From a virus, in IMG/VR virus record IMGVR_UViG_3300045988_080883: a DNA stretch of 54,194 bases; one strand, 5' to 3'. Every line of letters starts with the position of its first letter. Within the stretch, counting starts at the first letter, position 1. Positions 78 to 54,194 of this stretch are shown in pieces. The notes beneath the pieces are model-generated. The model saw only the letters and a list, made by a program, of their open reading frames with translations, was not told the origin of the DNA and did no database searches. Position numbers and translations under genes: made by a program.

Positions 78-276
78 ACACCTGCTCGACCCCATGAAAG
101 CCATCGTGAAGAAGCTTATGGACGAGGGCAAGACCGTGGACGAGATCGGCAAGCAGCTGGGCATGAAGCCCGAAGAGATCTTCCGTCTGTCCGGCTTCAC
201 CAAAGACGAGTTCCTGAACATGATGACCAAAGACCATCCGACATACTCCAAGGCCAAGGTCATCCGTAGCATCTGA
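1..276 (+). CDS. ParB/Srx-fold IbrB-like protein, C-terminal part (CDS wraps from 53866 across the junction)
   Basis: Frame 1 is open from base 1 to TGA 274-276. It is in phase with the ORF starting at ATG 53866 once the 77-bp overlap is removed. The joined product is about 175 aa. Confidence 0.8.
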   Translation, partial: VVVVDHHGDESADVYGTITHNRARGTHLLDPMKAIVKKLMDEGKTVDEIGKQLGMKPEEIFRLSGFTKDEFLNMMTKDHPTYSKAKVIRSI

Positions 277-293
277 GAGAGGAGCGTATCACA

Positions 294-443
294 ATGCCTG
301 TCGTAGACATCTACGTTAATAAGCCTGTACCCGTGCAGGACATGGAGTTCACCTTCGTGTATGACCCTGCAATGGTTGAAGCTGCGCTCCACCCGCCCGA
401 CAGCGGGCAGGAGCAGCCGTTCGGTGCTGAAAAGGTACTGTGA
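294..443 (+). CDS. hypothetical small protein (49 aa)
   Basis: ATG 294 is preceded by GAGAGGAG. It is below the ORF-track cutoff and no family was recognised. Confidence 0.3.
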   Translation: MPVVDIYVNKPVPVQDMEFTFVYDPAMVEAALHPPDSGQEQPFGAEKVL

Positions 444-588: not shown

Positions 589-1161
589 ATGCCTACAAAA
601 GAAAGACTTGCTGACAGAAACGTGACCACCACCGAACTGGCTCTGATACTGGGAATCACAGGCCGCAGAGTGCAGCAGCTAACACAGGATGGTGTGCTTA
701 CCACCGTCAGCCGGGGAAAGTTCGTCTTGTCTGATGCCGTGCAAGCCTACATCGGCAGCATCTCCCGTGGCGGGCTGACCAAGGAAGAAGCGGAGGAGGC
801 CAAGAAGATTGAGCGGGTCAAGGCCAAGGCTGAGGCCACGCTCAAGACCAGCAAGGCCAAAATCGCACAGGCAGAAGCCAAGGAGCTGTCTGGGCAGATG
901 CACCGCAGCGAGGACGTTGCTGCCATGACCGCCGAACTTATCTACACCATCCGGGGTGCGCTGATGGCGTTGCCCAGCCGGGTGGCCATCAATGCTGCTG
1001 CTCTATCTGATCCTGCTGAGGTTGCAGAGTATATGCGCGGCGAGGTCAATCAGATTGCGGAGGAAATCGCTCTGTTCCGCTATGACCCGGCCAAGTATGA
1101 GGCTCGCGTCCGGGAACGCCGGTCGTGGACTGATAAACTGGGCGGTGACGAGGATGAGTGA
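589..1161 (+). CDS. terS: terminase small subunit, Nu1-like (N-terminal HTH)
   Basis: AAAGGAGG RBS. The N-terminal HTH (TTTELALILGITGRRVQQLTQDG) and helical C-part resemble Nu1-type small terminases. It overlaps the terL start. Confidence 0.75.
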   Translation: MPTKERLADRNVTTTELALILGITGRRVQQLTQDGVLTTVSRGKFVLSDAVQAYIGSISRGGLTKEEAEEAKKIERVKAKAEATLKTSKAKIAQAEAKELSGQMHRSEDVAAMTAELIYTIRGALMALPSRVAINAAALSDPAEVAEYMRGEVNQIAEEIALFRYDPAKYEARVRERRSWTDKLGGDEDE

Positions 1162-3073
1162 CAACGCCGCAGTAGACCGCCTGAATGCTCTGGTGTCGAA
1201 GCTGGTGGCAGCTATTCGCCCGCCGCCCAACGAGACGGTCAGCGAGTGGGCAGCACAAAACCGCGTCCTGTCCCCGGAAGCATCTGCTGAACAAGGCCGC
1301 TGGCGCAACAGCAGAACGCCCTATCTGGTGGAAATCATGGACGCATACTCTGACCCTCGCGTCCATCACATTGTTGTCGTTGCGTCCTCGCAGGTCGGCA
1401 AGAGCGAATTTGAAAACAATGTCATCGGCAGAACGATTGACGTTGACCCAGGATCTATCCTTTTTATCCACCCGGTTCAGACTGATGCAAAGGAGTACAG
1501 CAAGCTGCGTATCGCTCCCATGATACGAGATTGCCCTACCCTGCGGGCAAAGGTGGCAGAGAGCAAGAGCCGAGACAGCGGCAACACCATTCTGCAGAAG
1601 TCTTACCCCGGCGGCATCCTGACCATGTGCGGCTCCACCGAGGCGCACGCTCTGGCATCGAAACCCATCCGCTATGTTCTGGGGGATGAACGTGACCGCT
1701 GGGCTGCGAGCGCCGGTACTGAGGGCGACCCTTGGGAACTGGCAATGGCCAGACAGACCACGTTCTATAATTCGAAGGCGGTGGAGGTCAGCACCCCCAC
1801 CATCAAGGGCCACAGTGCCATCGCAAAGTCCTACGTCAAGGGAACGATGGAACGCTGGGTATCCCAGTGCCCGCACTGCAAGGGCTTCCACGAACTGCGC
1901 TGGGAAGATATTCGGTACGATTACGACACCATTGAGACCCACGGCGAGAAAACCTACAAGGTCAAGGATGTGTGGTATCTCTGCCCGGAGTGCGGCTGCA
2001 TTTCGGACGAGGTGACCATGAAGCGGGCACCCGCTCACTGGCAGGCTGAAAATCCGGCAGCCTATGAGAACGGCATCCGCAGCTTCTGGCTGAACAGCTT
2101 CGTCAGTCAATGGGCGGCATGGAAAGACACCGTGCTGAAATACCTGAACGCCTTGGGCGATACCAAGAAGATGCAGGTCGTCTACAACACCCGCCTTGGG
2201 CTGCTGTGGGAAGACCGTGGCGATGTGCAGGACGAGGATACCATGCTGGGCCGCAGGGAGGAATATCCCGCAGAACTGCCGGAGGGTGTTCTGGTGCTGA
2301 CTGCTGGCGTTGACACGCAGGATGACCGCATGGAGTACGAGATCGTGGGCTTCGGCCACTTCGGGGAAACATGGGGCATCGAAAAGGGCATCGTCAGCGG
2401 CAGACCTGACAGCGATGAAGTCTGGCAGCAGCTGGACGAACTGGTGTTTGACCGCAAGCTGAAATTTGCTGATGGCGTGGAACTGCCTGTGTCCATCAAA
2501 TTTGTGGACGAGGGCGGTCATTTCACCCAAGAAATACGCCAGCGGTGCCATGACCGCATAGGCAAAAAGGTTTTCTGCATCAAGGGTTTTCCCGGCTCTG
2601 ATAGGCCATTTACCGGCCCGCCGAAACAGCAGAAAATCACGGTGCAGAACCGCTACATCGGGATGTGCTGGCAGTACCAGCTGGGCGTTGACTCCGGCAA
2701 ACAAATCATCATGGACGACCTGAAAGTACAGGAGCCAGGTGCCCGGTACTGCCACTTCCCGCGCCGGGATGATTACGGCCTTGGCTATTTTAATGGCCTG
2801 CTGTCTGAGCATTTGGTTTACAAGGATGGCCACCGCAATCCGTGGCAGTGGGAGAAAATCTCCGGCCATGAGCGCAACGAGCCATTGGACTGTAGAAACT
2901 ACGCTCTGGCGGCTTTCAAGGTGCTGCCGAAAGACCTCGATGCCATTGACCGCAGGCTGAAACAGCTGCGTGGCAAGGCAGTCGATACCCCGGCAACGGT
3001 AAATATTCAACAACCCATCTCCCGCTCCCAGCCAACCGGCAGAAAGCGGGAGAAACTTTTAGATGACTGGTGA
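1154..3073 (+). CDS. terL: terminase large subunit, lambda GpA family
   Basis: 640-aa product with a Walker-type ASSQVGKSE motif and the GpA-type Cys cluster CPHC...CPECG. The start was moved to ATG 1154 (MSDNAAV), which overlaps the terS stop. Confidence 0.9.
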   Translation: MSDNAAVDRLNALVSKLVAAIRPPPNETVSEWAAQNRVLSPEASAEQGRWRNSRTPYLVEIMDAYSDPRVHHIVVVASSQVGKSEFENNVIGRTIDVDPGSILFIHPVQTDAKEYSKLRIAPMIRDCPTLRAKVAESKSRDSGNTILQKSYPGGILTMCGSTEAHALASKPIRYVLGDERDRWAASAGTEGDPWELAMARQTTFYNSKAVEVSTPTIKGHSAIAKSYVKGTMERWVSQCPHCKGFHELRWEDIRYDYDTIETHGEKTYKVKDVWYLCPECGCISDEVTMKRAPAHWQAENPAAYENGIRSFWLNSFVSQWAAWKDTVLKYLNALGDTKKMQVVYNTRLGLLWEDRGDVQDEDTMLGRREEYPAELPEGVLVLTAGVDTQDDRMEYEIVGFGHFGETWGIEKGIVSGRPDSDEVWQQLDELVFDRKLKFADGVELPVSIKFVDEGGHFTQEIRQRCHDRIGKKVFCIKGFPGSDRPFTGPPKQQKITVQNRYIGMCWQYQLGVDSGKQIIMDDLKVQEPGARYCHFPRRDDYGLGYFNGLLSEHLVYKDGHRNPWQWEKISGHERNEPLDCRNYALAAFKVLPKDLDAIDRRLKQLRGKAVDTPATVNIQQPISRSQPTGRKREKLLDDW

Positions 3074-11818: not shown

Positions 11819-12187
11819 ATGAACACCACCATCAGCGATAAGGAGTACGATGCAGCCATCGCCGCTGCGAACAAAGCTGCCACCGACCCTTATGTGTACG
11901 TCCACAAGCTTATTCAGCCGTTTGAGTACGAGGGCAAGAAGTACGACACCCTGACGTTTGACTTCGGCAAGCTGACTGGCAATGATTCGCTTGCAATCGA
12001 GGCCGAGATGTCCGCTCTGCGCCAGCCGGTTATCGTGCCGAGCATGAGTGCGGGCTATCTGATTCGGATGGCCTGCCGGGCGTGTACGCAGCCCATCGGC
12101 GTTGACGTTATCGGCGCAATGAGCATTCGGGATTACAACACCATCCGCACCAAAGCAAGAAATTTTTTGATGCTGTCGGATGTGTAA
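11819..12187 (+). CDS. tail assembly chaperone (P2 gpE-like), zero-frame product
   Basis: Start ATG 11819 after AAGGAG. It sits between the tube and tape-measure genes and contains a slippery heptamer near its 3' end. Confidence 0.7.
   Translation: MNTTISDKEYDAAIAAANKAATDPYVYVHKLIQPFEYEGKKYDTLTFDFGKLTGNDSLAIEAEMSALRQPVIVPSMSAGYLIRMACRACTQPIGVDVIGAMSIRDYNTIRTKARNFLMLSDV
12163..12169 (+). promoter_or_regulatory. -1 programmed frameshift slippery heptamer T_TTT_TTG
   Basis: The zero frame reads AAT TTT TTG. The -1 frame is open from here to TAG 12352-12354. The heptamer matches the one I recall for P2 E/E+E'. Confidence 0.65.
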
Positions 12188-12354
12188 CTGATGATGGTGG
12201 AGAGTGGCTGCGGCGGCAAGCCCTTCTGATGGCGCAGGGCAACAACACCCCTGCACCATACTGGCTTGCAATGCCTCTGTATCAACTGCGGCAATGGATT
12301 GATACCAACAATGCCATTGTTGCCGAGCGCGAAAAGGCGAGAAAGGCGAAGTAG
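12163..12354 (+). CDS. -1 frame extension of the tail assembly chaperone (E+E'-like C-terminus)
   Basis: The -1 frame encodes ...GGEWLRRQALLMAQGNNTPAPYWLAMPLYQLRQWIDTNNAIVAEREKARKAK. Its stop overlaps the tape-measure GTG (TAGTG). Confidence 0.65.
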   Translation, partial: FFDAVGCVTDDGGEWLRRQALLMAQGNNTPAPYWLAMPLYQLRQWIDTNNAIVAEREKARKAK

Positions 12355-15300
12355 TGGCTCGAAAAGAATGGGAGTTGCTGTTCAACCTGTCCGCCAAACA
12401 GAACAGCAACTTCTCCAGCACCTTCAAGGCTGCACAGTCTGCCCTTGCGGAAACACAGAACAGAATCCAGCAGCTGAACAAGGTACAGTCCGACATAACT
12501 GCGTACCAGAAGCAGCAGCAAGCCGTTGACTCCACCAAGCAGCGGCTGGCCGTCTTGCAGCAGCAGTACGATAACATCCAGAAAGAGATTCAGGAGACCG
12601 AGGGCTATTCCTCTGCGCTGGAAAACAAGCTGATTTCCAAGCAGGCGCAGATCGACAAGACCACGACCTCCCTGCACACCTATGAGCAGCGTCTGGCTGC
12701 CACCGGGAACACCCTGCGGGAAGCTGGCGTGGACACCACGCAGCTGACAGCAGAAACCACTCGGCTGGAAACCGAGGTCGATAAGCTTAAAGACCAGCAG
12801 GTTGACCTCAAAAAGACCATGGACGAGGCCGGAGAGGGCGCAAAGGGCTTCGGCGAGAAATCTGTCGAAGCCCTCGATGCCGTTGAATCTGTGCTTGCCA
12901 CGGCTGGCATCGCAAAAGCCCTCGACGAAATCAAAGACGCATACATGGACTGCATCAACACCGCAGGTGATTTTGAAGCATCCATGAGCAACGTCGAAGC
13001 CCTGTCCGGCGCATCCGGCGATGAACTGGAAGCCCTGTCCGACAAAGCCAAGGAGATGGGCGCAACCACCAAGTTCACCGCCGGTGAATCTGCGGACGCT
13101 CTGTCTTACATGGCTCTGGCAGGCTGGAACACCCAGTCTATGCTGGAGGGTATCAGCCCGGTGCTGAATCTGGCTGCTGCTGCCAACATGGACTTGGCGC
13201 AGGCATCGGATATTGTCACCGACTATCTGACCGCCTTTGGTCTGAAAGCCTCTGACACCACGCACTTTGTCGATGTGATGGCCTACGCCATGGCTCACTC
13301 CAACACGGATGTGATCCAGCTGGGCGAGGCATACAAGGCATGTGCATCCACCGCCACCTCCCTCGGCTACTCTGTTGAGGAGACCACCGCAGTCCTGGCT
13401 ACCATGGCCAATGCAGGTGTTAAGGGCGGCGAGGCTGGCACAGCCCTGAACGCCATCTTTACCCGCCTTGCCACCAACACGAAAAAGTGCGGTGACGAAC
13501 TGGCAAACTATGGCGTGAACATCTACGATGCACAGGGCAATATGCAGTCCCTGTCCAGCATCCTTACCGGGATTGCCAGTGTCTGGGGCGACCTGACCGA
13601 CCAAGAGCAGGCCAACCTTGCCAAGACCATCGCTGGCACGAACCAGTATTCCAAGCTGCAAACCATCATGGCCGGGTGCAGTGAGGCCGCCGCCGAGGGC
13701 GGGCAGTCGTTCTCAGACTACACCGCAGCCCTGAACAACTGCGCCGGGTCTGCCGACAAGATGGCGGGCACCATGCTCGACAACATGAACGGCAGGCTGG
13801 TTCTGATGCAGTCTGCCGCTGACGGCCTAAAAATCGCCATCGGCGAGGATTTGACCCCGACTTTGTCCAAGCTGTACGATGTCGGGGCTAAAGTTCTGGG
13901 CTGGATGCAGGGCTTCGTTGAGGAACATCCCGGTGTAGTCAAGGCGGTTGCGGCCGGAACTGTCGCTCTTGGAGGGCTCCTTGGCGTTATGACTGCCGCA
14001 TCTGCGGCAATAAAAATTGGCAGCGCAGCTATGGGCCTGTTCTCTGCATCCCTTGGAGTGACGGCTCCTGTTCTTGCGGGCGTTGTCGTTGCAGGAACGG
14101 CTCTCGCTGCCGTAATCGGTGGAATTTCCGGCGCAGCAGACGATGGTGTCCCGCATGTGCGAGAACTGACCAGCGCAGCCCGCGATATGGGCAGTAGCAT
14201 GGACGAGGTCAGCGACACCTACCATTCCACGCTGTCCAACATGGAAGCCACTGCCAGTGTCGCGGACCAGTACATCAGCAAGTTGGAGGCCATCGAAGCT
14301 GCCACCAACGGCAATACTGCCGGGAACGCTGAGTATCACGATACCCTTGCCCGCCTGTCTGCGCTGGTGCCCAGTCTGGCTGATGATATTGACCTTGAAA
14401 CGGATTCCATCAAGGGCGGCACAGAAGCTCTGCGCCAGCACGCGAATGCTTATGCGGACGATGTAAAAGTGCAGGCTCGGCAAGAGTACCTGAACGGAAT
14501 CTACGAGCAGTACAACGATGTGCTGGTCGAAAGTGCGGCGAATGAAGCGAAGCTGGCTGCTGCACAGGCAAAGGTCGAAAAAACCAATGCCGGCATGGAC
14601 GCAACCTACAGCAAGTTGCTTTCCACGCTCGGCATGACGGACGAACAATTCAAGTCCACTTATGGCACAGTTCAGGATATTCCTTGGCGTTCCATGGGCG
14701 AGGATGTGCAGCAGCTGCGCACCGAGTACATGGGCTACTCGGAAGACCTCGCCACTGCCCAGCATGAAGTCGAAAACTACACCGAGGCTGTGGAGAAGGA
14801 TCAAGAGGCCATCGATGCAGCTGAGGCCGAGTATCAAGAAGCCAAGGATGCAGTCGATTCCCTGAACGCAGCGCAGCAGGATGCCGCCAACAGCGCAAAC
14901 GATGTGGCTGCACAGGAGCAGGCCGTCACCGATGTTATCAACAGTGCCGAGGCGGAGATTCAGGAACTCGTTTCGGCATACACGGACGCTTACAATGCGG
15001 CCTATGACAGCATCAGTAAGCAGTACGACCTGTGGGATACCGCTGAGAAGGTCGTCGCCACCTCTGCATCCAGCATCAACTCCGCGCTGGAAAGCCAGAT
15101 CACCTACTGGGACAACTACAACCAGAACCTCGAAAGCCTAACCGAACGCGCTGCCGATATTGACGGTTTGAGCGACGTTATCGCCAGCTTCGCCGATGGC
15201 AGCAAGGATTCTGTGAACGCTATCGCCGGCATGGCTGCTGCATCAGATTCCGACCTCGCAAAGATGGTCGAGAATTACCGCTCCTTGCAGGAGGCGCAGA

Positions 15301-43560: not shown

Positions 43561-43584
43561 AAGCTACTTGAAAGGAGCTTCATC

Positions 43585-44298
43585 ATGGATAATTCTCTGT
43601 CTGAATCCGCACGTTTCGCAGTCTACCGTGAAAAACTCAAGGGCATCTGCGAGGCCAATAACCTGAGTTATGTGTTCATCAAGAACGCATACCCCATCAA
43701 GCTGGTTATTCGTCCGTTGGGCGGCGTTGGTGAACAGATGTCGATGCTGGAGGAGGCATCCGAGGATAACTACATCTCGCCGGGTGCATCCATCCTGTTC
43801 ACCGTCAAGGATGGGAACCTGACCTACCGCATGAGCAAGACGTTCACCATCTCCGACACCCTGTTCAACAAAATCAAGAACATCTTCAAGAATATGCACT
43901 ACCTCTGGCTCCAGTTCTTCTTCCGGGATTTGGTCGAGGGTGGAAAGCTGGCAGCTCTCGGCTACAAAATGCCGGATATTCCGGAATCCGGTGGGCAGCA
44001 GGATGCGCCCCGGAAAAATGAGCCTGATTCTTCGAATCTCCCAGGGGAGGCCGAACCGCTGGAAGAAGTTGATGCCGAGGAACTGGACGATGCGGAGGAA
44101 CCCGCAGCCGATGAACTGACCAAGGCCACCGAGATTGCCCGGAAGAACGGCGGTGTTACGCAGGCCATGTTGGAGCAGCAGATGGGCGTGACCGCAGAAA
44201 AGGCCATCGCACTGCTGGATGATATGGAATCCGCAGGCGTGATCGAGTTCTCCAACGGGCACTACACCATCGCCGCTGCTGACAGCGAGGAGGAGTAA
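43585..44298 (+). CDS. hypothetical protein with FtsK-gamma-like winged-helix C-terminus
   Basis: An acidic linker is followed by GGVTQAMLEQQMGVTAEKAIALLDDMESAGVIEF. Confidence 0.4.
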   Translation: MDNSLSESARFAVYREKLKGICEANNLSYVFIKNAYPIKLVIRPLGGVGEQMSMLEEASEDNYISPGASILFTVKDGNLTYRMSKTFTISDTLFNKIKNIFKNMHYLWLQFFFRDLVEGGKLAALGYKMPDIPESGGQQDAPRKNEPDSSNLPGEAEPLEEVDAEELDDAEEPAADELTKATEIARKNGGVTQAMLEQQMGVTAEKAIALLDDMESAGVIEFSNGHYTIAAADSEEE

Positions 44299-44301
44299 CC
44301 T

Positions 44302-45195
44302 ATGGCAAAGGCAGCAGTGACCCACAGCATCCGGGATGACCACCAGAAGAACTTCCTCAAAATCTTCAATAGCCTGACTGGAAAGCACAGCCGCTGGGAG
44401 ATTTGGGAGGACTTCGTCACCCTGACGGCCATCGAGATCTCGAACAGCACGGACAAGGTAAATGCCCCAGAGCGCACCAAGATGTATCAGACCATCGTTT
44501 CCAAATACTCCGCCAAGGAGCGGGAGGGCATGGCTGAAATGCTGGGCGAGGTAATCATGGGTATGGAGCAGAATCCTGACCAAGACTTCCTCGGTTCGCT
44601 GTACATGATGTGCGAGTTGGGCAACTCGCACGCCGGGCAGTTCTTCACTCCCTACGATGTGTGCCGCTGCATGGCCGAGATTACGTTCGACCCGAAGCTG
44701 CACCCGGACATGGAGGGATTCATCTCGGTATCTGACCCGGCCTGTGGTGCTGGGGCCACGCTGCTTGCCTTTTTGAACGTCTGCAAAAGACGGAATATCT
44801 GCTACCACAACAAAATCCTTGTCATTGCCCAAGACATTGACTTCATCGTTGGGCTGATGTGCTACATCCAATGCAGCTTCATGGGCTGCGCTGGATATGT
44901 AGTCATCGGTGACACACTCGTGAACCCAGCAACGGCCTACGACAGCCGCGGATTGCTGCCCGCAGGACCGCAAAACCGCATCTGGTATATGCCGCTTTTC
45001 TCAACCGATGTGTGGTATATGCGCCGCCAGATAGCGCAGATGAACCTGCTGTTTGAACCGAAAGGCGAACCGGCAAAAATCGAAAAAACCGATATTAAAC
45101 CCGCAAATTTGCAAAAATCTATCAAAAACGAGCCTAAAGCCACGGAAAACGAGCCCCTTAACGAAACCAAAACCGGGCAGCTCACGTTTTTCTAA
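44302..45195 (+). CDS. N6-adenine methyltransferase-like protein lacking a recognisable catalytic (D/N)PP(Y/F) motif
   Basis: GQFFTP (motif X) and VSDPACGAGATLL (motif I) are present. No PP dipeptide occurs anywhere in the 297 aa. Confidence 0.6.
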   Translation: MAKAAVTHSIRDDHQKNFLKIFNSLTGKHSRWEIWEDFVTLTAIEISNSTDKVNAPERTKMYQTIVSKYSAKEREGMAEMLGEVIMGMEQNPDQDFLGSLYMMCELGNSHAGQFFTPYDVCRCMAEITFDPKLHPDMEGFISVSDPACGAGATLLAFLNVCKRRNICYHNKILVIAQDIDFIVGLMCYIQCSFMGCAGYVVIGDTLVNPATAYDSRGLLPAGPQNRIWYMPLFSTDVWYMRRQIAQMNLLFEPKGEPAKIEKTDIKPANLQKSIKNEPKATENEPLNETKTGQLTFF

Positions 45196-45220
45196 CCCGA
45201 AATAAGAAAGGAGTATCCCT

Positions 45221-46759
45221 ATGGCAGACATTACTTACATCCCTATCCGGCAGTTGTACCCTCACCCCGATAACCCCCGCAAGGAACTGGGCGACCTGTC
45301 CGAACTTGCCGCCAGCATCAAGGAAAACGGCGTGTACCAGAACTTGACCGTAATCCCCGGCCACTACCTCAACAGCCGGGAGTACATCGCAAAGTGCGTT
45401 GACGAGGGCGGGGATGCAGCCGCAGCAGCGGCAGCATGGACACCCAAGGCTGTGTGGTCCAGTGAGGACTACACCATCATCATCGGCCACCGCCGGGCAG
45501 CAGCAGCGCAGCAGGCCGGGCTGTACGAGTTGCCCTGCGCCATCGTAGAGATGGACGAGCGGGAGCAGATGCAGACCATGATGATTGAAAATATGCAGCG
45601 GTCAGACCTCACCGTCTACGAACAGGCCCAGGGCTTCCAGATGATGATGGACTTCGGACAGACGGTGGAGCAGATCTCCGACAAGTCAGGGTTCTCCCAG
45701 TCCACTATCCGGCGGCGCATCAAGCTGCTGGAACTGAACCACGACAGCTTCAAGAAAGCCGAAAAGCGCGGTGCCACCCTTTCCGATTTTGTTGAACTTA
45801 ACAAAATCGAGGACTTGGATGCCCGGAACAAGGTGCTGGAAACCCTCGGCACAGCTAATTTTAACCGTGAGATGCAGAACGCCTTGTCTAACCAGAAATA
45901 CCAGCACAGAAAGGCTGAATGGATTGAGCAGCTTCGCCAATTTGCAGTGGAAAATCCTGATGCCAATTACAGCACTCACGCGCACGTTGCTGGGTACGGA
46001 TATTGGAACACTAGCAAGGACGTTGAAGTGCCGGACGATGCCGATAGCGTAGCGTACTGCTACAAGGTCAGCCAAAACCAGATTGACCTCTACAAAGAGC
46101 GTGATTTGGGAAAAGAGAATGCGGAAACGGCTAAGCGAGAGGAAAAGCGGCAGCGGGAACAGTTCTATAAGGACCAACTTTCCGCCCTCACAAACTATAT
46201 GTTTGAACTGCGCCGGGACTTTGTGACGCAGCTTTCCACGGCAGAGTGCAAAAAGCATCTGGGCGAAATCGTCCGCTTTGCCGTGGATGCGTTCGATTCA
46301 AATTACGATGGCGAGTTGACAATCAAGCTGCTGGGCATTGCTCCACCGGAAACGGACAGCATTGACCTGCTTGATTATCTGGAAAGCGTTTCGGTGTTCA
46401 ACGACCAGCCGGAAAAGGCACTGCTCTCCTTGGCCTATTCGGCCGCTGACGATGGCAGCAACGGATACTGGGGCTGGGTCTGGCAACCCGACTGCCAGAG
46501 CGGCGGGTACGGCTGGGAGGAAAATGGCAGTCTCGACGCTATTTACACTCTGCTGGTAGCTTTGGGCTATGAAATGTCTGACGAAGAAAAGGCGTTACAG
46601 AACGGAACCCATGCCATCTTTTCCACCAATGTCCCTAAAAAGGCAGATGTGCCCTGCGAACGTTGCAAGGCGGCACATCCCGGATGCGACAAGTGCTGCA
46701 GAACTTGCGATAACCACTGCAATGCGTTCCAGTTGTGCAGAAAGGAGCAGGCAGAATGA
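45221..46759 (+). CDS. ParB/Srx N-terminal domain protein with Cys-rich C-terminus
   Basis: LYPHPDNPRKELG...IIIGHRRAAAA...TVYEQA are the ParB boxes. The C-terminus is CERCKAAHPGCDKCCRTCDNHCNAFQLC. Confidence 0.8.
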   Translation: MADITYIPIRQLYPHPDNPRKELGDLSELAASIKENGVYQNLTVIPGHYLNSREYIAKCVDEGGDAAAAAAAWTPKAVWSSEDYTIIIGHRRAAAAQQAGLYELPCAIVEMDEREQMQTMMIENMQRSDLTVYEQAQGFQMMMDFGQTVEQISDKSGFSQSTIRRRIKLLELNHDSFKKAEKRGATLSDFVELNKIEDLDARNKVLETLGTANFNREMQNALSNQKYQHRKAEWIEQLRQFAVENPDANYSTHAHVAGYGYWNTSKDVEVPDDADSVAYCYKVSQNQIDLYKERDLGKENAETAKREEKRQREQFYKDQLSALTNYMFELRRDFVTQLSTAECKKHLGEIVRFAVDAFDSNYDGELTIKLLGIAPPETDSIDLLDYLESVSVFNDQPEKALLSLAYSAADDGSNGYWGWVWQPDCQSGGYGWEENGSLDAIYTLLVALGYEMSDEEKALQNGTHAIFSTNVPKKADVPCERCKAAHPGCDKCCRTCDNHCNAFQLCRKEQAE

Positions 46760-50141: not shown

Positions 50142-50537
50142 GTGACACTACAGGAATTGTCCAAGTATTATGACATTCAGATGACCCTCGAAAAAGACCG
50201 TGAAGCCTTGGAGAATCTTCGGCAGAAAATCAATCCTGCCTCCCCACAGCTAACGGGTATGCCACATACGCCCGGTGTTCGGGACAAGGTGGCGGATCTG
50301 GCTGTGGAACTGGCTGACATGGATGAACGTGTCCGCTGGTTGGAGGAACAGGCAGCGGAAGAAAAGCCCAAGGTCGAGGCGTACTGCAAGAGCATCATGG
50401 ATGCCCGGCTTTATCTGATCTTCCGGCTGCGGTTTGTCCGCTGCTACTCGTGGGCAGAAGTTGCTGGAGCACTCGGAAAGTGTTACACGGAAGCCGGGGT
50501 CAGCCGGATGGCCTACAACTACCTCGAATCACATTGA
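50142..50537 (+). CDS. late-gene transcriptional activator (ArpU/RinA/DUF1492-like, sigma region-4-type HTH)
   Basis: GTG 50142 lies 6 nt after GGAGG. The C-terminus LIFRLRFVRCYSWAEVAGALGKCYTEAGVSRMAYNYL is HTH-like. It is the last gene before the packaging region. Confidence 0.55.
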   Translation: MTLQELSKYYDIQMTLEKDREALENLRQKINPASPQLTGMPHTPGVRDKVADLAVELADMDERVRWLEEQAAEEKPKVEAYCKSIMDARLYLIFRLRFVRCYSWAEVAGALGKCYTEAGVSRMAYNYLESH

Positions 50538-50544
50538 CCGATAA

Positions 50545-50573
50545 GCCCTGCATTTGCGGGGCTTTTTATTTTT
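50545..50573 (+). terminator. intrinsic terminator after the late regulator gene
   Basis: GCCCTGC ATTT GCGGGGC hairpin (one G-U pair) followed by TTTTTATTTTT. Confidence 0.8.
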
Positions 50574-50696: not shown

Positions 50697-50737
50697 GTTT
50701 CACACGGTGATGGACGGTGTAGGACGGTTTCACACGG
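50697..50737. repeat. direct repeats GTTTCACACGG (x2) interleaved with GGACGGT (x2)
   Basis: GTTTCACACGG at 50697-50707 and 50727-50737. GGACGGT at 50712-50718 and 50722-50728. Confidence 0.5.
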
Positions 50738-50755
50738 CGCGTAATGCCGTGCAAT

Positions 50756-50817
50756 AAACAAGAACGACCAGCAACGAAGAAGAACGAAAGCCAACGAGCA
50801 GCAACGAGCAGCAACGC
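50756..50817 (+). repeat. 62-nt thymine-free tract with reiterated AGCAACG motifs
   Basis: No T from 50756 to 50817. It contains CAGCAACGAAG...CCAACGAGCAGCAACGAGCAGCAACGC. Confidence 0.5.
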
Positions 50818-50888
50818 TTTGATATGGATTCAGATGACAACGGATGCTCCCGGTGATATGATTAGGATGCAAAATCCGAATCAAGCCA

Positions 50889-50928
50889 AGCGGTGCCTGC
50901 CAGAAATGGCGGGTGCCGCTATTTTTAT
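50889..50928 (+). terminator. terminator-like hairpin inside the leader (possible attenuator)
   Basis: 13-bp stem (50889-50901 pairs with 50908-50920, three G-U pairs), loop AGAAAT, then ATTTTTAT. Confidence 0.5.
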
Positions 50929-51058
50929 ACCTGAAAGGAGGATTCCGAGCCGCACGCTGCTCTCCTTTGCGTGTGGCATTACCGCAGCACCCCGAAAAGC
51001 TGAGGTGCTGCAAGCTGGACATTTCGCCGTGTCCAGCCGCAAAGAAGGAGATTTTTCC

Positions 51059-52060
51059 ATGTATCAGAAAATCAAGGCGAAATTCAAGGCAAGTCCCACT
51101 ATTTTCTACGCCTGCTCCATCGTTGCATCGTGGGCAGGAGTAGGCAGCTTGATGAACTTCCGCACCATTGCATTGCGATACGGAGCAGTTCCGGCAATCA
51201 TCTGGGCAGTGTTCAATTCCCTGGCATGTATCACGTTCGGTTTGTTCGCTGACCGTGTTCCGTCCATTCGGCGCATCATGCAGAGCAAGGTGATGTTCTA
51301 CTTCATCGGTCTGCTGACGCTGTTTCAGACGTGGACTCAGATGAGCGGCATCTACGAGATCTTTGGCGATACACCCGTTGGAACCAAGGGCGGCATGATT
51401 ATCGTGTACGTCACCTGTGTGGCGTTCCTGATTATGTTGCTCAAAGACGGCATGATTCGCAACGTGCTGTCCGATGGCTTTTCATGGGTGGTCGTTTATG
51501 GCCTGCTGGCCGTAGTAGTGGCTGCTGCTCTGGTGTACACTGGCGGCACGTTCGCCGTCATCGACCCCGGTGTAAACGCCGCTGGCATTAAGGCTGGCGT
51601 GTACAACGGCTTACTTCTGCTGCCCGGCCCATTTGCTTGTCCGTATTACTATTCGCTGTTTGAGTACAACGATAAAAATGCAGACGGCACCAAGCGCGGC
51701 AACATGAAAAAGGCCTTCGTGCTGGCGGGCGTGATGTTTGGCATCTACATGGTGCTGGCTGCGCTGCTCACGTGGGTGCACTTCAGCCCGGTGCTGAACG
51801 TAATGAAAGCTATTTTGATTACGGTCATCGCCATTTCCTCGCTGTCTACCTATCTCTACTGCGAATATCTGGTTTTCGGCAAGAAGTTTGGCTTCGCACT
51901 GGATGTTCTCACCGTGGCCTCGTGGCAGATCCTGATTCCGCTTGGCGTTATGGGCATCTGGCAGCTGATGAGCACGATCCGCATCTACGTTGTCGTAGCC
52001 GCCGTCCTGTTCTCCATCGTTCTGGACCTCGTTTCTGACAGAAAGGAGGCCGCACGATGA
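51059..52060 (+). CDS. 10-TM integral membrane protein, transporter-like (family not recognised)
   Basis: Start ATG 51059 lies 8 nt after AAGGAG. 333 aa with about ten hydrophobic helices. The RBS of the next gene lies inside its 3' end (ATGA overlap). Confidence 0.7.
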   Translation: MYQKIKAKFKASPTIFYACSIVASWAGVGSLMNFRTIALRYGAVPAIIWAVFNSLACITFGLFADRVPSIRRIMQSKVMFYFIGLLTLFQTWTQMSGIYEIFGDTPVGTKGGMIIVYVTCVAFLIMLLKDGMIRNVLSDGFSWVVVYGLLAVVVAAALVYTGGTFAVIDPGVNAAGIKAGVYNGLLLLPGPFACPYYYSLFEYNDKNADGTKRGNMKKAFVLAGVMFGIYMVLAALLTWVHFSPVLNVMKAILITVIAISSLSTYLYCEYLVFGKKFGFALDVLTVASWQILIPLGVMGIWQLMSTIRIYVVVAAVLFSIVLDLVSDRKEAAR

Positions 52061-52740
52061 ACATCACGGTAAAGAAGCTGGCAGAGCTGCATAAGCCTGC
52101 CCACAACATCCGCCGGCACTCCGACAAGCAAATCACCGAGTACATCCGCAGCATTGAGATGTTCGGTCAGGTGAAGCCGCTGGTCGTTGCCGAGGATGGC
52201 GAAATCATTGCCGGCAACGGTCTGTACGAAGCCCTGCTCCGCATGGGTCGGGAAACCTGCGACTGTTATGTGATGGTCGGGCTGACCGATGTGCAGAAGA
52301 AAAAGCTGATGATGGCCGACAACAAGGTCTATGAACTCGGCTTTACCGATGTGGATGCCATCGAAGAACTGGTCAAGGAACTGGACGGCGATGTGGACGT
52401 TCCGGGCTGGGATGCTGACCTGCTGGAAATGCTGAACAGCACCACGGATGAAGCTGATGAAGTAATCAGTTCCTACGGCGATTTCCCGGAAAACGAGATC
52501 GCACCCATCAGCCGCCATCAGGCAGAGGAACACGTTCCGTATGCCGAAACACCGACCTACCCGGTGGCTCCCGCCCCGCAGCCTGCTCCTACCGTCTCCG
52601 CTGCCCCGCAGCAGCCCTCCACAGTGCTGGAGGTGTCTACACCTTCTGAACCGCAAACAGCTGCTCCAGAGGCGGACAGCGGCGTGGAGCAGCGCAGGTG
52701 CATCCGTTGCCCGAAGTGTGGTGAACTGATATGCCTGTGA
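52057..52740 (+). CDS. ParB/Srx-fold protein with degenerate GxxR box and C-terminal Zn-ribbon
   Basis: LHKPAHNIRRHSDKQI...VKPLVVAEDGEIIAGNGLYEAL is a ParB N-domain with NG in place of HR. A Pro/Ala-rich linker is followed by CIRCPKCG. Confidence 0.7.
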   Translation: MNITVKKLAELHKPAHNIRRHSDKQITEYIRSIEMFGQVKPLVVAEDGEIIAGNGLYEALLRMGRETCDCYVMVGLTDVQKKKLMMADNKVYELGFTDVDAIEELVKELDGDVDVPGWDADLLEMLNSTTDEADEVISSYGDFPENEIAPISRHQAEEHVPYAETPTYPVAPAPQPAPTVSAAPQQPSTVLEVSTPSEPQTAAPEADSGVEQRRCIRCPKCGELICL

Positions 52741-53879
52741 AAGTAGTGGAAAGCAGCATGAACGTGCTGCAAGCGGCGAAAATCCGCATCCGCAATGTGT
52801 TCGCAAACGGCTGCAAAATCTATCTGTCGTTTTCCTCCGGCAAGGACAGCCTGTGCATGGCCAACCTCGTGTATGAGATGATTCTCTCCGGCGAACTCGA
52901 CCCCAAGCAGCTGACGGTGACATTCATTGACGAAGAAGGGCTTTACCCCTCCATGGTCGATGCAGCGCACCGCTGGCGGCGCAACTTCCTGTCGGTCGGC
53001 GCGAAATTCCTGTGGTTTTGCTTGCCGTTCAAGCAGGTGTGCGTGATAGACCACCTTTCCGCGTCAGAATCGTGGATAACATGGGAGCCGGGCAAAGAAG
53101 ATGTGTGGATGCGTACCCCACCCGATTTTGCCATCAGGTACAGCCCATACCTGCACCACCCCGGAGAGATGAACTACCAGACGTTCTGCGAAAAGGCGTT
53201 CCGCGACGGCATTCAGCTGGTCGGCCTACGCACGGCAGAAAGCCTGACCCGCTTTAAGTGCATCGCCAACACCAAGATGGAGCGTATCACAAAAGGCGGC
53301 AAGTTCTATCCCATCTACGATTGGGCTGATTCCGATGTTTGGCTGTACATCAAAGAGCGAAACCTTGAATTCCCTGAAATCTATATGCGTTTGTACGAAG
53401 CTGGTGTGCATAAAAATGCACTCCGGCTTTGTGCTTTCTTTGGAGATACCAGCACACAAGGCCTACGGTGGGTTGCAGAAACCGACAACGACCTGTGGGA
53501 GCGTATCCAGCGGCGAGAGCCAAACGCCTACCTAGTTCTGCTTTACTGGGATTCCGAGATGTTCCGGCGCAGCACCCGCAAGCGGCGTGAGCTGGAAGCA
53601 GATACCGAACAGAAGGATTATAAAGCCCTCTGCAAAGACCTGCTGTTCCTCCACCCGGAGCGGTACACCATCGCCAAGGACACCTTATCCCACATCGACC
53701 ACTGGCGAGGCCTGTTCATAAAGACCTATGGTATCGCTGAACAGAAGCACTACAAGACCATGTATGAGGGGCTGCTGTACGGAGATCCCAAGATGCGTAT
53801 CCTGCGCATCCTCTGGACCACCATCTACAACGACCACAACGCCCGCATCAAAGAGGAGCAGAACCATGGAAAACATTGA
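52731..53879 (+). CDS. PAPS reductase-family PP-loop protein, IbrA/YbdN-like
   Basis: SFSSGKDSLCM is a PP-loop. The C-terminal region (LRLCAFFGDTSTQGLRWVAETDNDLWERI...) resembles the DUF3440 extension of IbrA-type proteins. It overlaps both neighbours. Confidence 0.85.
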   Translation: MPVKVVESSMNVLQAAKIRIRNVFANGCKIYLSFSSGKDSLCMANLVYEMILSGELDPKQLTVTFIDEEGLYPSMVDAAHRWRRNFLSVGAKFLWFCLPFKQVCVIDHLSASESWITWEPGKEDVWMRTPPDFAIRYSPYLHHPGEMNYQTFCEKAFRDGIQLVGLRTAESLTRFKCIANTKMERITKGGKFYPIYDWADSDVWLYIKERNLEFPEIYMRLYEAGVHKNALRLCAFFGDTSTQGLRWVAETDNDLWERIQRREPNAYLVLLYWDSEMFRRSTRKRRELEADTEQKDYKALCKDLLFLHPERYTIAKDTLSHIDHWRGLFIKTYGIAEQKHYKTMYEGLLYGDPKMRILRILWTTIYNDHNARIKEEQNHGKH

Positions 53880-54194
53880 CGTATTCGCACCGCTGGCATC
53901 CCTCCAGTGGGTAGACCGCAACACCATCCACGCCAACGACTACAACCCCAACAAGGTCAGTGAGGAGAACCTGAAGCTGCTGGTGCAGTCCATCCTGACC
54001 AACGGCTGGACGCTGCCCATCGTGGTACGCCCGGACGGAACCATCATTGACGGCTTCCACCGCTGGACAGTATCAGGCCGTGAACCGCTGCTGTCCCTGC
54101 TGGGCGGCAAGGTGCCTGTCGTAGTCGTAGACCATCACGGTGACGAGAGTGCCGACGTATACGGCACAATCACCCACAACCGCGCCCGCGGCAC
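53866..54194 (+). CDS. ParB/Srx-fold IbrB/YbdM-like protein, N-terminal part (continues at 78-276 after the overlap)
   Basis: ATG 53866 overlaps the IbrA-like stop. LQWVDRNTIHANDYNPNKV...IIDGFHRW is the ParB/IbrB signature. The ORF is open to the window end. Confidence 0.8.
   Translation, partial: MENIDVFAPLASLQWVDRNTIHANDYNPNKVSEENLKLLVQSILTNGWTLPIVVRPDGTIIDGFHRWTVSGREPLLSLLGGKVPVVVVDHHGDESADVYGTITHNRARG
54118..54194. repeat. 77-bp terminal direct repeat, copy 2
   Basis: Identical to 1-77. Confidence 0.95.

Follow-up and report, generated by a model that had tools for sequence, protein, structure and literature searches.

The gut phage genome IMGVR_UViG_3300045988_080883 of IMG/VR (the window; 54,194 nt as given) carries, between a RinA-like late activator gene and the terminase genes terS and terL, a cassette of four plus-strand genes whose products are a predicted transporter (here MEMB), a ParB-like protein with a degenerate motif (ParB-like-1), an IbrA-like PP-loop enzyme (IbrA) and an IbrB-like ParB-fold protein (IbrB). 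MEMB (51059..52060, +; 333 aa) shares an ATGA stop/start overlap with ParB-like-1 (52057..52740, +; 227 aa), which overlaps IbrA (52731..53879, +; 382 aa) by 10 nt; IbrA in turn overlaps IbrB (175 aa whole) by 14 nt. AGGAGG-type ribosome sites are strong before all genes but IbrA, and the weak site of the latter fits translational coupling. The window is a closed phage genome in which bases 1-77 are an exact duplicate of 54118-54194, which we interpret as the assembler k-mer overlap of a circular contig, so that the true circle measures 54117 bp. IbrB crosses this junction: its frame is lost on naive end joining and restored once the duplicate is removed, giving a 5' part at 53866..54194 (+) and a 3' part at 78..276 (+). 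An earlier reading of the window from its sequence alone (the sequence-only reading) had described four overlapping plus-strand genes running from 51059 across the junction to 276. All four genes and their overlaps are present, and the stop at 276 stands, with the refinement that the 77-bp duplicate must go first.

A predicted LeuT-fold transporter

The AlphaFold2 model of MEMB (pLDDT 86, pTM 0.86) has ten transmembrane (TM) helices, as had been anticipated for this 333-aa protein, arranged in a LeuT/APC fold. Foldseek matches it with probability 1.00 to CHT1, LAT1, AdiC, Nramp, CodB and BetP (TMq 0.59-0.65). No Pfam, NCBIfam, PHROG or PADLOC family matches MEMB (Pfam and NCBIfam at E<=0.1), and the sole sequence-profile match of its family is to SLC5A6, the sodium-dependent multivitamin transporter (E 8e-4, over ~130 residues). 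The family is small, with 364 word-indexed homologues and 169 clusters among 1.8 billion representatives, and is apparently confined to phage or other viral cassettes. Judged from its model, MEMB is a minimal 10-TM, LeuT-fold secondary transporter resembling the solute:sodium symporters (SSS/SLC5), of a family that lacks a Pfam model. We place its start at 51059 rather than at the ATG at 50744 because of the ribosome-binding site (RBS), the lengths of its homologues (331-333 aa) and the conserved leader that lies upstream.

The transporter is linked to the IbrA/IbrB cassette

The neighborhood of MEMB was surveyed locally in 102 evaluable metagenomic or viral loci, using stop-to-stop open reading frames (ORFs) and jackhmmer classes without overlap. 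MEMB occurs with ParB, IbrA or IbrB partners in 101 of the 102: the order MEMB-ParB-like-1-IbrA-IbrB is found in 67, a five-gene order with a short PP-loop enzyme (SPAPS) inserted, MEMB-SPAPS-ParB-like-1-IbrA-IbrB, is found in 21, and MEMB stands alone in one. Because many of these loci are closely related, the counts cannot be read as independent. Greater independence is offered by 53 species-representative genomes, mostly of Oscillospiraceae and other gut/rumen Clostridia, with MEMB at 41-52% identity: of the 44 loci whose downstream sequence is long enough, 43 carry the cassette in full, and a recognizable large terminase usually comes next. The linkage is kept at 22-56% identity and in phages with different terminase and portal types. 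At 56% identity, L004 and L008 keep all four genes, in phages whose packaging and head modules are different; at 43%, L096 reads MEMB, a 246-aa product, short PAPS_reduct, ParB-like-1, IbrA, IbrB, terS; at 26%, L012 reads MEMB, short PAPS_reduct, ParB-like-1, IbrA, IbrB; and at 24%, L095 reads IbrA (DUF3440), a 130-aa product, IbrB, MEMB, a 216-aa product, terL. The exceptions without partners are L105, with MEMB alone, and L169, with MEMB and a fragmentary short enzyme.

The sequence-only reading had named the outcome that would overturn it, a membrane gene that is an unrelated moron inserted before an IbrAB module. Such a moron would sit easily with the cultured phages, among which MEMB occurs only in the group of Faecalibacterium phage FP_Taranis and phage Pioen while IbrAB modules are commonly found without it. 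The neighborhood census effectively refutes it, and we regard it as very improbable: the linkage extends across phage backbones at 22-56% identity and into type IV CRISPR loci (see below), the stop and start codons overlap, and only one locus with enough flank lacks the partners.

The short PP-loop enzyme is a PAPS_reduct-family protein of ~265 aa with the motifs WxxGKDS and GxRxxDGN, and has no Cys conserved at >=90%. About a third of cassettes (L053:8984-9784, L056, L059, L068-L078, L096:1920-2705, L012:8053-8832 and others) have it inserted after the transporter and ahead of ParB-like-1; the window lacks it. Its presence in close relatives of the window phage makes the window a four-gene variant of a four-/five-gene cassette.

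Some metagenomic gene calls join MEMB or IbrA to ParB_N (PF02195) or N6_Mtase (PF02384); these calls (P0025, P0080, P0032, P0273, P0275 and P0368) are either true fusions or merged overlapping genes. If real, such fusions would lend Rosetta-stone support to a DNA-modification role.

Virus-borne type IV CRISPR-Cas loci as a second context

Eight deep-branch loci consist of a minimal pair, in which a PAPS_reduct-family gene encoding 255-287 aa overlaps the MEMB gene. All seven minimal pairs for which upstream sequence is available lie in type IV CRISPR-Cas loci with the organization csf1-cas11-csf2-csf3-(cas6)-cysH-like-MEMB (L093:332-5067; L125:3590-8927; L124, L126, L127, L129 and L130; IMG/VR and Logan contigs). 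No CRISPR arrays were found by these loci with TRF or a repeat finder. The type-IV-linked CysH-like enzyme also has no Cys conserved at >=90%, and has full-length relatives in classic IV-B plasmid loci, e.g. Rhodococcus pREL1 (L190). The CysH-like protein of type IV-B systems (CasCysH) has been described as a strictly conserved PP-loop protein without a catalytic Cys, of unknown function (PMC8175902); among the papers searched we found no description of a transporter beside a type IV CysH-like gene. In both of its settings, then, the MEMB family is found with a PP-loop enzyme that lacks conserved cysteines and with a partner that binds nucleic acid but has no nuclease.

As a separate observation, three copies of a ~42-nt repeat, 72-85 nt apart, lie at L125:13731-13929, a few kb from the type IV locus and immediately downstream of a gene (11894-13606) for a 570-aa protein with a Cas12f1-like TNB domain.

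A PP-loop enzyme without conserved cysteines

The assignment of IbrA to the family of 3'-phosphoadenosine 5'-phosphosulfate (PAPS) reductases from its PP-loop was correct, in that it carries the FSSGKDS motif and matches PF01507 (PAPS_reduct; E 4e-11, 43.7 bits against a cut-off of 22.5). It also matches phrog_2302 (3.7e-93) and Escherichia coli YbdN (28% identity over residues 1-262, E 2e-29). Conservation in IbrA, IbrB and ParB-like-1 was assessed among sequences <80% identical to one another. Across 17 such IbrA sequences the conserved motifs are the PP-loop SxSxGKDS, GxRxxESxxR and PxxDW..DxWxY, and no Cys is conserved at >=90%, which argues against both PAPS reduction and Dnd-type phosphorothioation. 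The IbrA-type C-terminal extension that had been proposed is confirmed only in part. A helical extension is present, but Pfam detects no DUF3440 (PF11922) in IbrA at E<=0.1; only residues ~213-278 can be aligned, and weakly (E 3e-5), to a fragmentary homologue bearing DUF3440, and the last ~100 residues (~290-382) show no alignment to YbdN or to the IbrA of Streptococcus thermophilus phages.

Two specific identities were considered and set aside. IbrA as a true CysH (PAPS/APS reductase) was rejected on the grounds that neither the catalytic Cys (ECGLH) nor the CC..CxxC motif is conserved and that curated CysH models score far below their cut-offs (NF002537, 22 bits vs 154; TIGR00434, 19.4 vs 165). 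IbrA as DndC was rejected since the DndC Cys set is missing, the model is far below its cut-off (TIGR03183, 16 bits vs 290.4; PADLOC DndC about 24 bits with no significant stretch), and the neighbors in the cassette are only ParB-like proteins and a transporter. The best sub-threshold NCBIfam matches of IbrA, and likewise of the short PP-loop enzyme, are CysD-type adenylyltransferases. Structural neighbors of the IbrA model include NcsA/TtuA, the PAPS domain of FAD synthase, PAPS reductase, GMP synthase, LarE, CysD and TilS; the fold search gave no subfamily assignment, and a sequence search of solved structures returned nothing significant. The description that suits IbrA best is that of a PP-loop ATP pyrophosphatase or adenylyltransferase, rather than of a PAPS reductase or DndC.

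These data bear directly on a sulfur pathway, in which IbrA would be an auxiliary 'cysH' for assimilatory sulfate reduction, or would act in Dnd-like phosphorothioation, with the transporter bringing in a sulfur compound. Membership of PF01507 points in this direction, as do the two folds shared with DndB/DndC and weak profile matches of IbrA to DndC and BrxP. However, all three enzymes (IbrA, the short PP-loop enzyme and the type-IV-linked enzyme) are without a Cys conserved at the level given above, the cysH and DndC scores fall far under their cut-offs, and the cassette contains no DndA, DndD or DndE-like genes. Moreover, we know of no sulfate transporter with a LeuT fold, which further counts against a sulfur pathway. 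The analogy to Dnd drawn in the sequence-only reading is weakened accordingly: the two folds are indeed the same, but the cysteines and model scores expected of DndC are missing. Phage 'cysH', its DUF3440 clade included, has been treated as an organosulfur auxiliary gene (bioRxiv 10.1101/2021.01.05.425418; PMC12323421); for the cassette described here, we consider a sulfur role quite unlikely.

Two distinct ParB-fold partners

ParB-like-1 comprises a ParB/Srx-fold N-domain with a degenerate Box II, a Pro/Ala-rich linker and a C-terminal Cys4 knuckle. The AGNG that had been noticed in place of the DGxHR box is present, and GNG replaces Box II throughout the family. A C-terminal Cys motif is likewise there, in the compact form CxxCxxCx4C (C215, C218, C221 and C226) rather than the CxxC...CxxC ribbon first proposed, and only its CPxCG is semi-conserved. 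The match to Pfam ParB_N (PF02195) is weak (E 0.03, 14.8 bits vs a cut-off of 26.3). ParB-like-1 belongs to phrog_620 (9e-48); phage ParB-methyltransferase fusions also match it through their N-terminal domains (phrog_498, 2e-28; PADLOC MTase_II, 8.5e-17). It has no relation to YbdM beyond the fold. Identity as a partition ParB with a CTPase clamp was rejected, as the Box II GxxRxxA arginine is lacking and TIGR00180 scores 12.6 bits vs 58.45.

IbrB, in which a ParB fold with DGFHRW had been foreseen, has this motif and matches PF02195 at 27.0 bits, just over the cut-off; PF01507 and PF02195, the profiles proposed as checks, are thus exceeded by IbrA and IbrB, respectively. IbrB also matches phrog_2159 (8e-72) and E. 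coli YbdM (40% identity over 144 aa, E 1e-29), and resembles Spo0J over the N-domain plus the helix-turn-helix (HTH). Strongly conserved are DGFHRW and HNRARGxH (NTP-pocket motifs, >=90%) and the HTH. The homology to YbdN/YbdM, the enzyme-then-ParB order and the 14-nt gene overlap together support membership of the pair in the IbrA/IbrB-YbdN/YbdM families, with the DUF3440 domain as the exception.

The properties of these proteins would also suit small-molecule (nucleotide or cofactor) metabolism or an anti-defense pathway with no DNA modification. MEMB would then import a metabolite, the PP-loop enzyme(s) would adenylylate it as CysD acts on sulfate and FAD synthetase on FMN, and the ParB/Srx-fold proteins would serve as NTP-dependent kinases or regulators, yielding a product that aids late infection or counters host defense. 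The CysD-type sub-threshold matches and the presence of CysD and the FAD synthase PAPS domain among the structural neighbors of IbrA are consistent with this, a dedicated importer is most natural alongside a pathway with a soluble substrate, and the second PP-loop enzyme often comes directly after the transporter. ParB-CTPase-fold proteins are known to bind ATP, GTP or CTP and to include metabolic enzymes, in a survey of the fold that makes no mention of PAPS-reductase-linked ParBs (PMC12704722). On the other hand, the conserved HTH of IbrB and its likeness to Spo0J over N-domain and HTH, the grouping of ParB-like-1 with the ParB domains of DNA methyltransferase fusions, the nucleic-acid-binding Csf complex of the second context and the packaging genes that adjoin the cassette all tell against it. 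We give the metabolic explanation an appreciable but clearly minor share of probability.

Distribution of the cassette and its annotated relatives

IbrA-like matches occur in 161 of 50,697 phage records, from many hosts, with MEMB limited to the Taranis group. The closest cultured relatives, FP_Taranis (gp35-gp38) and phage Pioen (orf75-78), match the window gene for gene over the cassette, between the RinA-like gene and terS/terL, with 84% nucleotide identity across the module and protein identities of 78% for MEMB and 94% for IbrA; FP_Taranis is a different phage species from the window. Its four products are labeled 'transporter membrane protein', 'nuclease / ParB-like', IbrA and IbrB. Outside this group, in unrelated phages, ParB-like-1, IbrA and IbrB are genes 5-7 of Arthrobacter phage Laroye, in the order of the window, and occur in the order ParB-like-1, IbrB, IbrA in Riemerella phage PJN03, in both cases directly upstream of the terminase genes. 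Phages of three phyla thus carry this trio immediately upstream of the terminase genes. IbrAB is a widespread accessory module, with ParB-like-1 as a frequent third member and the transporter as an add-on in one large clade.

The sequence-only reading had recognized the membrane partner and the second ParB in no described system. The cassette proves to be already annotated in FP_Taranis, although no described function was found: our literature searches returned annotations only, and neither a discussion of the cassette nor a function for IbrA/IbrB, YbdN/YbdM or DUF3440 proteins came to light. The degenerate ParB is a regular partner that accompanies IbrA and IbrB in Laroye and PJN03. The genes of the cassette are therefore not new. 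What is new is evidence that the transporter and the second ParB belong to the cassette as recurrent, integral parts, that the annotated sulfur chemistry would need cysteines which the enzyme lacks, and that the transporter-enzyme pair recurs in viral type IV CRISPR loci.

The position of the cassette, between a RinA-like activator and terS/terL, also raises a regulatory or packaging accessory role, in which IbrA/IbrB co-activate (pro)phage late genes and the membrane protein has a separate role; in its packaging form, the ParB-like 'nuclease' proteins would help terminase at cos, as HNH proteins do. The IbrA/IbrB name comes from activation of prophage eib genes, and is the basis of the SEED label 'co-activator of prophage gene expression'. 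The three soluble proteins lie by the terminase genes in three phyla, IbrB has an HTH, and E. coli YbdM has been counted among predicted transcription factors (PMC9068703). In a pure regulator, however, one would not expect a conserved PP-loop active site. IbrAB is patchy among related phages and lies away from the terminase genes in S. thermophilus phages, which argues against a core packaging function, and a regulatory role would explain neither why the transporter is linked almost without exception nor why type IV loci reuse it. We therefore judge this role unlikely.

Promoter region, leader and flanking genes

The RinA-like late transcriptional activator (50142..50537, +; phrog_36 'transcriptional regulator', E 3.5e-12) lies immediately upstream of the cassette, and its FP_Taranis orthologue is annotated 'RinA-like transcriptional activator'. 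The gap of ~520 bp between it and MEMB contains, in order, the RinA-like terminator, a repeat-rich segment, a promoter-like site and a leader of ~190 nt. The terminator-like hairpin and T-run (50543..50564, +) ends the RinA-like gene and is kept in relatives. The direct-repeat region (50697..50815, +) comprises two copies of GTTTCACACGG, two of GGACGGTG and three of (A/C)AGCAACGA, and is partly conserved among relatives; lying upstream of the promoter-like site, these repeats are candidate binding sites for the adjacent RinA-like activator. The promoter-like site (50834..50862, +) consists of ATGACA, a spacing of 17 nt and an extended -10 element, TG-TATGAT, which is retained even in the distant cassettes L004 and L008. 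It is the probable start of the late operon.

The conserved, structured 5' leader RNA (50866..51058, +; ~190 nt) is predicted to form four plus-strand hairpins: P1 (50889-50920), with a 14-bp stem and a U-tract; P2 (50949-50977), whose loop carries an anti-Shine-Dalgarno-like CUCCUUU; P3 (50984-51011); and P4 (51014-51037). The CUCCUUU loop is able to pair with either a pseudo-Shine-Dalgarno sequence, GAAAGGAGG (50933-50941, +), or the true Shine-Dalgarno sequence, AAGGAG (51045-51050, +). In an RNAalifold analysis of 18 leaders, both partners have changed in a compensatory way in 18 of the 37 pairs, and the paired fraction of leader cells is 95.2%, compared with 86.7% for shuffles and 32-51% for slid controls; these statistics lend support short of proof, since the alignment that gave the structure is also the one tested and its sequences are related to one another. 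Rfam gave no match at gathering threshold in the whole window, and only chance-level matches to the leader at E<=5. The arrangement suggests that the late operon is controlled by antitermination or at the level of translation. A riboswitch was considered and set aside, as a terminator-like hairpin begins ~20 nt after the predicted start near 50868 and leaves no room for an upstream aptamer.

Downstream of IbrB, a 49-aa ORF (294..443, +) with a good RBS is followed by terS (589..1161, +), as the sequence-only reading had it. This ORF has no family match in Pfam, NCBIfam or PHROG, and no promoter-like or terminator-like site was found in the interval from IbrB to terS. The corresponding spacer of Taranis (L001:7631-8071) holds two small ORFs, encoding an 87-aa DUF6275 protein and a 53-aa product; set against the single, unrelated-looking ORF of the window, this indicates that the spacer region is variable. 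The terS gene agrees in size and position with the annotated terS of FP_Taranis, and precedes a GpA-type terL (about 1154..3073, +; start codon uncertain) with matches to GpA_ATPase (1e-76) and GpA_nuclease (8e-71).

Elsewhere in the genome, the product of 45221..46759 is a canonical ParB_N + HTH_ParB protein, so that three ParB/Srx-fold genes are present, as previously counted. This 512-aa ParB ends in a Cys-rich tail (CERC...CDKCCRTCDNHC). Directly upstream of it (window 44302-46759 for the two), a 297-aa protein matches only the N-terminal third of N6_Mtase (PF02384 positions 21-121) and has a DPACGAG motif, forming another pairing of a ParB with a methyltransferase-like protein in the window genome. 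Long antisense ORFs on the minus strand lie opposite terL (1046-3013; 655 aa), opposite ParB-like-1/IbrA (51985-52923; 312 aa) and opposite the gene upstream of the third ParB (43564-44973; 469 aa). All three are most likely a by-product of codon or GC bias rather than genes.

A model for the cassette

Our preferred reading, which we hold tentatively and with somewhat less than even confidence, is that the cassette may be a late-expressed, ParB-assisted accessory PP-loop module that acts on phage DNA ahead of packaging, modifying it with the help of a co-substrate brought in from outside. Transcription would begin at a RinA-dependent late promoter at ~50834 and cover the leader, MEMB, ParB-like-1, IbrA, IbrB, terS and terL in one transcript. 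MEMB, as a minimal Na+/H+-coupled, SSS-like symporter, would import the small-molecule co-substrate. IbrA, as a PP-loop ATP pyrophosphatase, could then spend ATP on adenylating an acceptor group, which would most likely be on DNA; on the pattern of TilS, GMP synthase and tRNA thiolases, the imported nucleophile would next take the place of AMP. IbrB, with its ParB_N domain, intact NTP pocket and HTH, and ParB-like-1 may load or activate IbrA on double-stranded DNA (dsDNA). The genome would be marked just before packaging, and so protected in the next host. Mu Mom is a precedent for late expression just before packaging.

Several lines of evidence lead us to this reading. The linkage of MEMB is near-obligate, and its family recurs beside a PP-loop enzyme in the second, type IV context. 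IbrA retains its PP-loop motifs and the matching fold, and the NTP pocket and HTH of IbrB are strongly conserved. ParB-like-1 matches ParB-methyltransferase fusions, and ParB-activated DNA-modifying enzymes serve as precedents. The trio stands upstream of the terminase genes in three phyla, with nothing terminator-like between IbrB and terS in the window, and the genes show translational coupling and share a conserved leader.

Other observations weigh against a DNA-modification module with a dedicated importer. The presence of IbrAB in 161 phage records, set beside the restriction of MEMB to the Taranis group among cultured phages, implies that the transporter is dispensable for core IbrAB function, and in S. 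thermophilus phages the IbrA-IbrB pair follows the lysis genes and is not by the terminase. No MEMB-family member was found on any of 72,556 plasmids, and the plasmid IV-B loci are without the transporter. The IbrA model is of moderate quality (pLDDT 70), and its structural neighbors are generic to the PP-loop superfamily. Small-molecule enzymes exist in both the ParB/Srx (SerK, sulfiredoxin) and PAPS_reduct (CysD, FAD synthetase) families, which makes a metabolic pathway possible. Finally, the sole phenotype tied to IbrAB, to our knowledge, is activation of prophage gene expression.

DNA modification by the cassette can be extended into a more general and less probable proposal. The SSS-like transporter and cysteine-less PP-loop enzyme might constitute a portable 'import-and-attach' unit, which would place an imported metabolite onto DNA by adenylation. 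Its targeting to DNA might fall either to ParB-fold proteins (IbrB and ParB-like-1) or to type IV Csf complexes, which are RNA-guided and free of nuclease. Were this so, the unit would represent a class of DNA hypermodification not yet described, and the functions of IbrA/IbrB-YbdN/YbdM and of the type IV-B CysH-like protein would become answerable together. The shared transporter family in itself ties these two long-standing unknowns to one another, and suggests a small-molecule co-substrate.

IbrA/IbrB (YbdN/YbdM) pairs occur widely among phages and enterobacteria. These data reveal that IbrA normally has two different ParB-fold proteins as partners, encoded with it where the packaging operon begins, and that in a large group of phages of gut/rumen Clostridia a transporter of a previously unrecognized family has been added. 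Many counts of 'cysH' auxiliary genes in gut viromes probably include such non-reductase proteins. Both FP_Taranis, which can be grown on F. prausnitzii, and Pioen are available in culture, as are the bacteria they infect, and this puts nucleoside mass spectrometry and long-read modification calling within reach.

Comparison with known systems

Among characterized transporters, MEMB most closely resembles the SSS/SLC5 symporters (CHT1, SMVT), with which it shares the LeuT fold and its 5+5 inverted repeat; CHT1 is the best structural match (TMq 0.65). These symporters have 13-14 TM helices, whereas MEMB has only 10 in ~330 aa and no Pfam SSF match.

The soluble genes find their nearest well-known counterparts in E. 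coli IbrA/IbrB and YbdN/YbdM. IbrB shares NDYNPN, DGFHR, HNRARGxH and the HTH with YbdM, and ybdN-ybdM of K-12 has the same enzyme-then-ParB order with a stop/start overlap as in the window. The E. coli YbdN/YbdM-type pairs differ in that they are chromosomal and CitR-regulated, and have no transporter, second ParB or short PP-loop enzyme.

Pairing of a ParB/Srx-fold DGxHR protein with a PAPS_reduct-family PP-loop enzyme that acts on DNA is also seen in DndB/DndC (and SspD, BrxP). The cassette differs from Dnd in having no cysteine desulfurase (DndA), DndD or DndE and in the absence of an Fe-S motif from IbrA, and Dnd has no transporter. A further comparison is the pairing of a ParB-fold protein with a neighboring DNA-modifying enzyme that needs it for activity on dsDNA. 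ParB-like proteins activate the phage base-modifying thymine dioxygenase 5mYOX specifically on dsDNA (PMC13229309), and the ParB-like ATPase DpdB is required by DpdA, in work that notes the same two folds in the DndB/DndC pair (PMC12839542). In these systems the partner is a dioxygenase or a transglycosylase rather than a PP-loop enzyme, there is no transporter, and the 5mYOX ParBs are without an HTH.

Type IV-B CRISPR-Cas provides the remaining comparison. The window has no csf or cas genes, being flanked instead by the RinA-like gene and terS, and the CysH-like enzymes are very divergent from its IbrA; ParB-like proteins hold in the window the role of DNA-binding partner. Common to both are a PAPS_reduct-family PP-loop enzyme without a catalytic Cys and, in the viral type IV loci, an adjoining member of the MEMB family.

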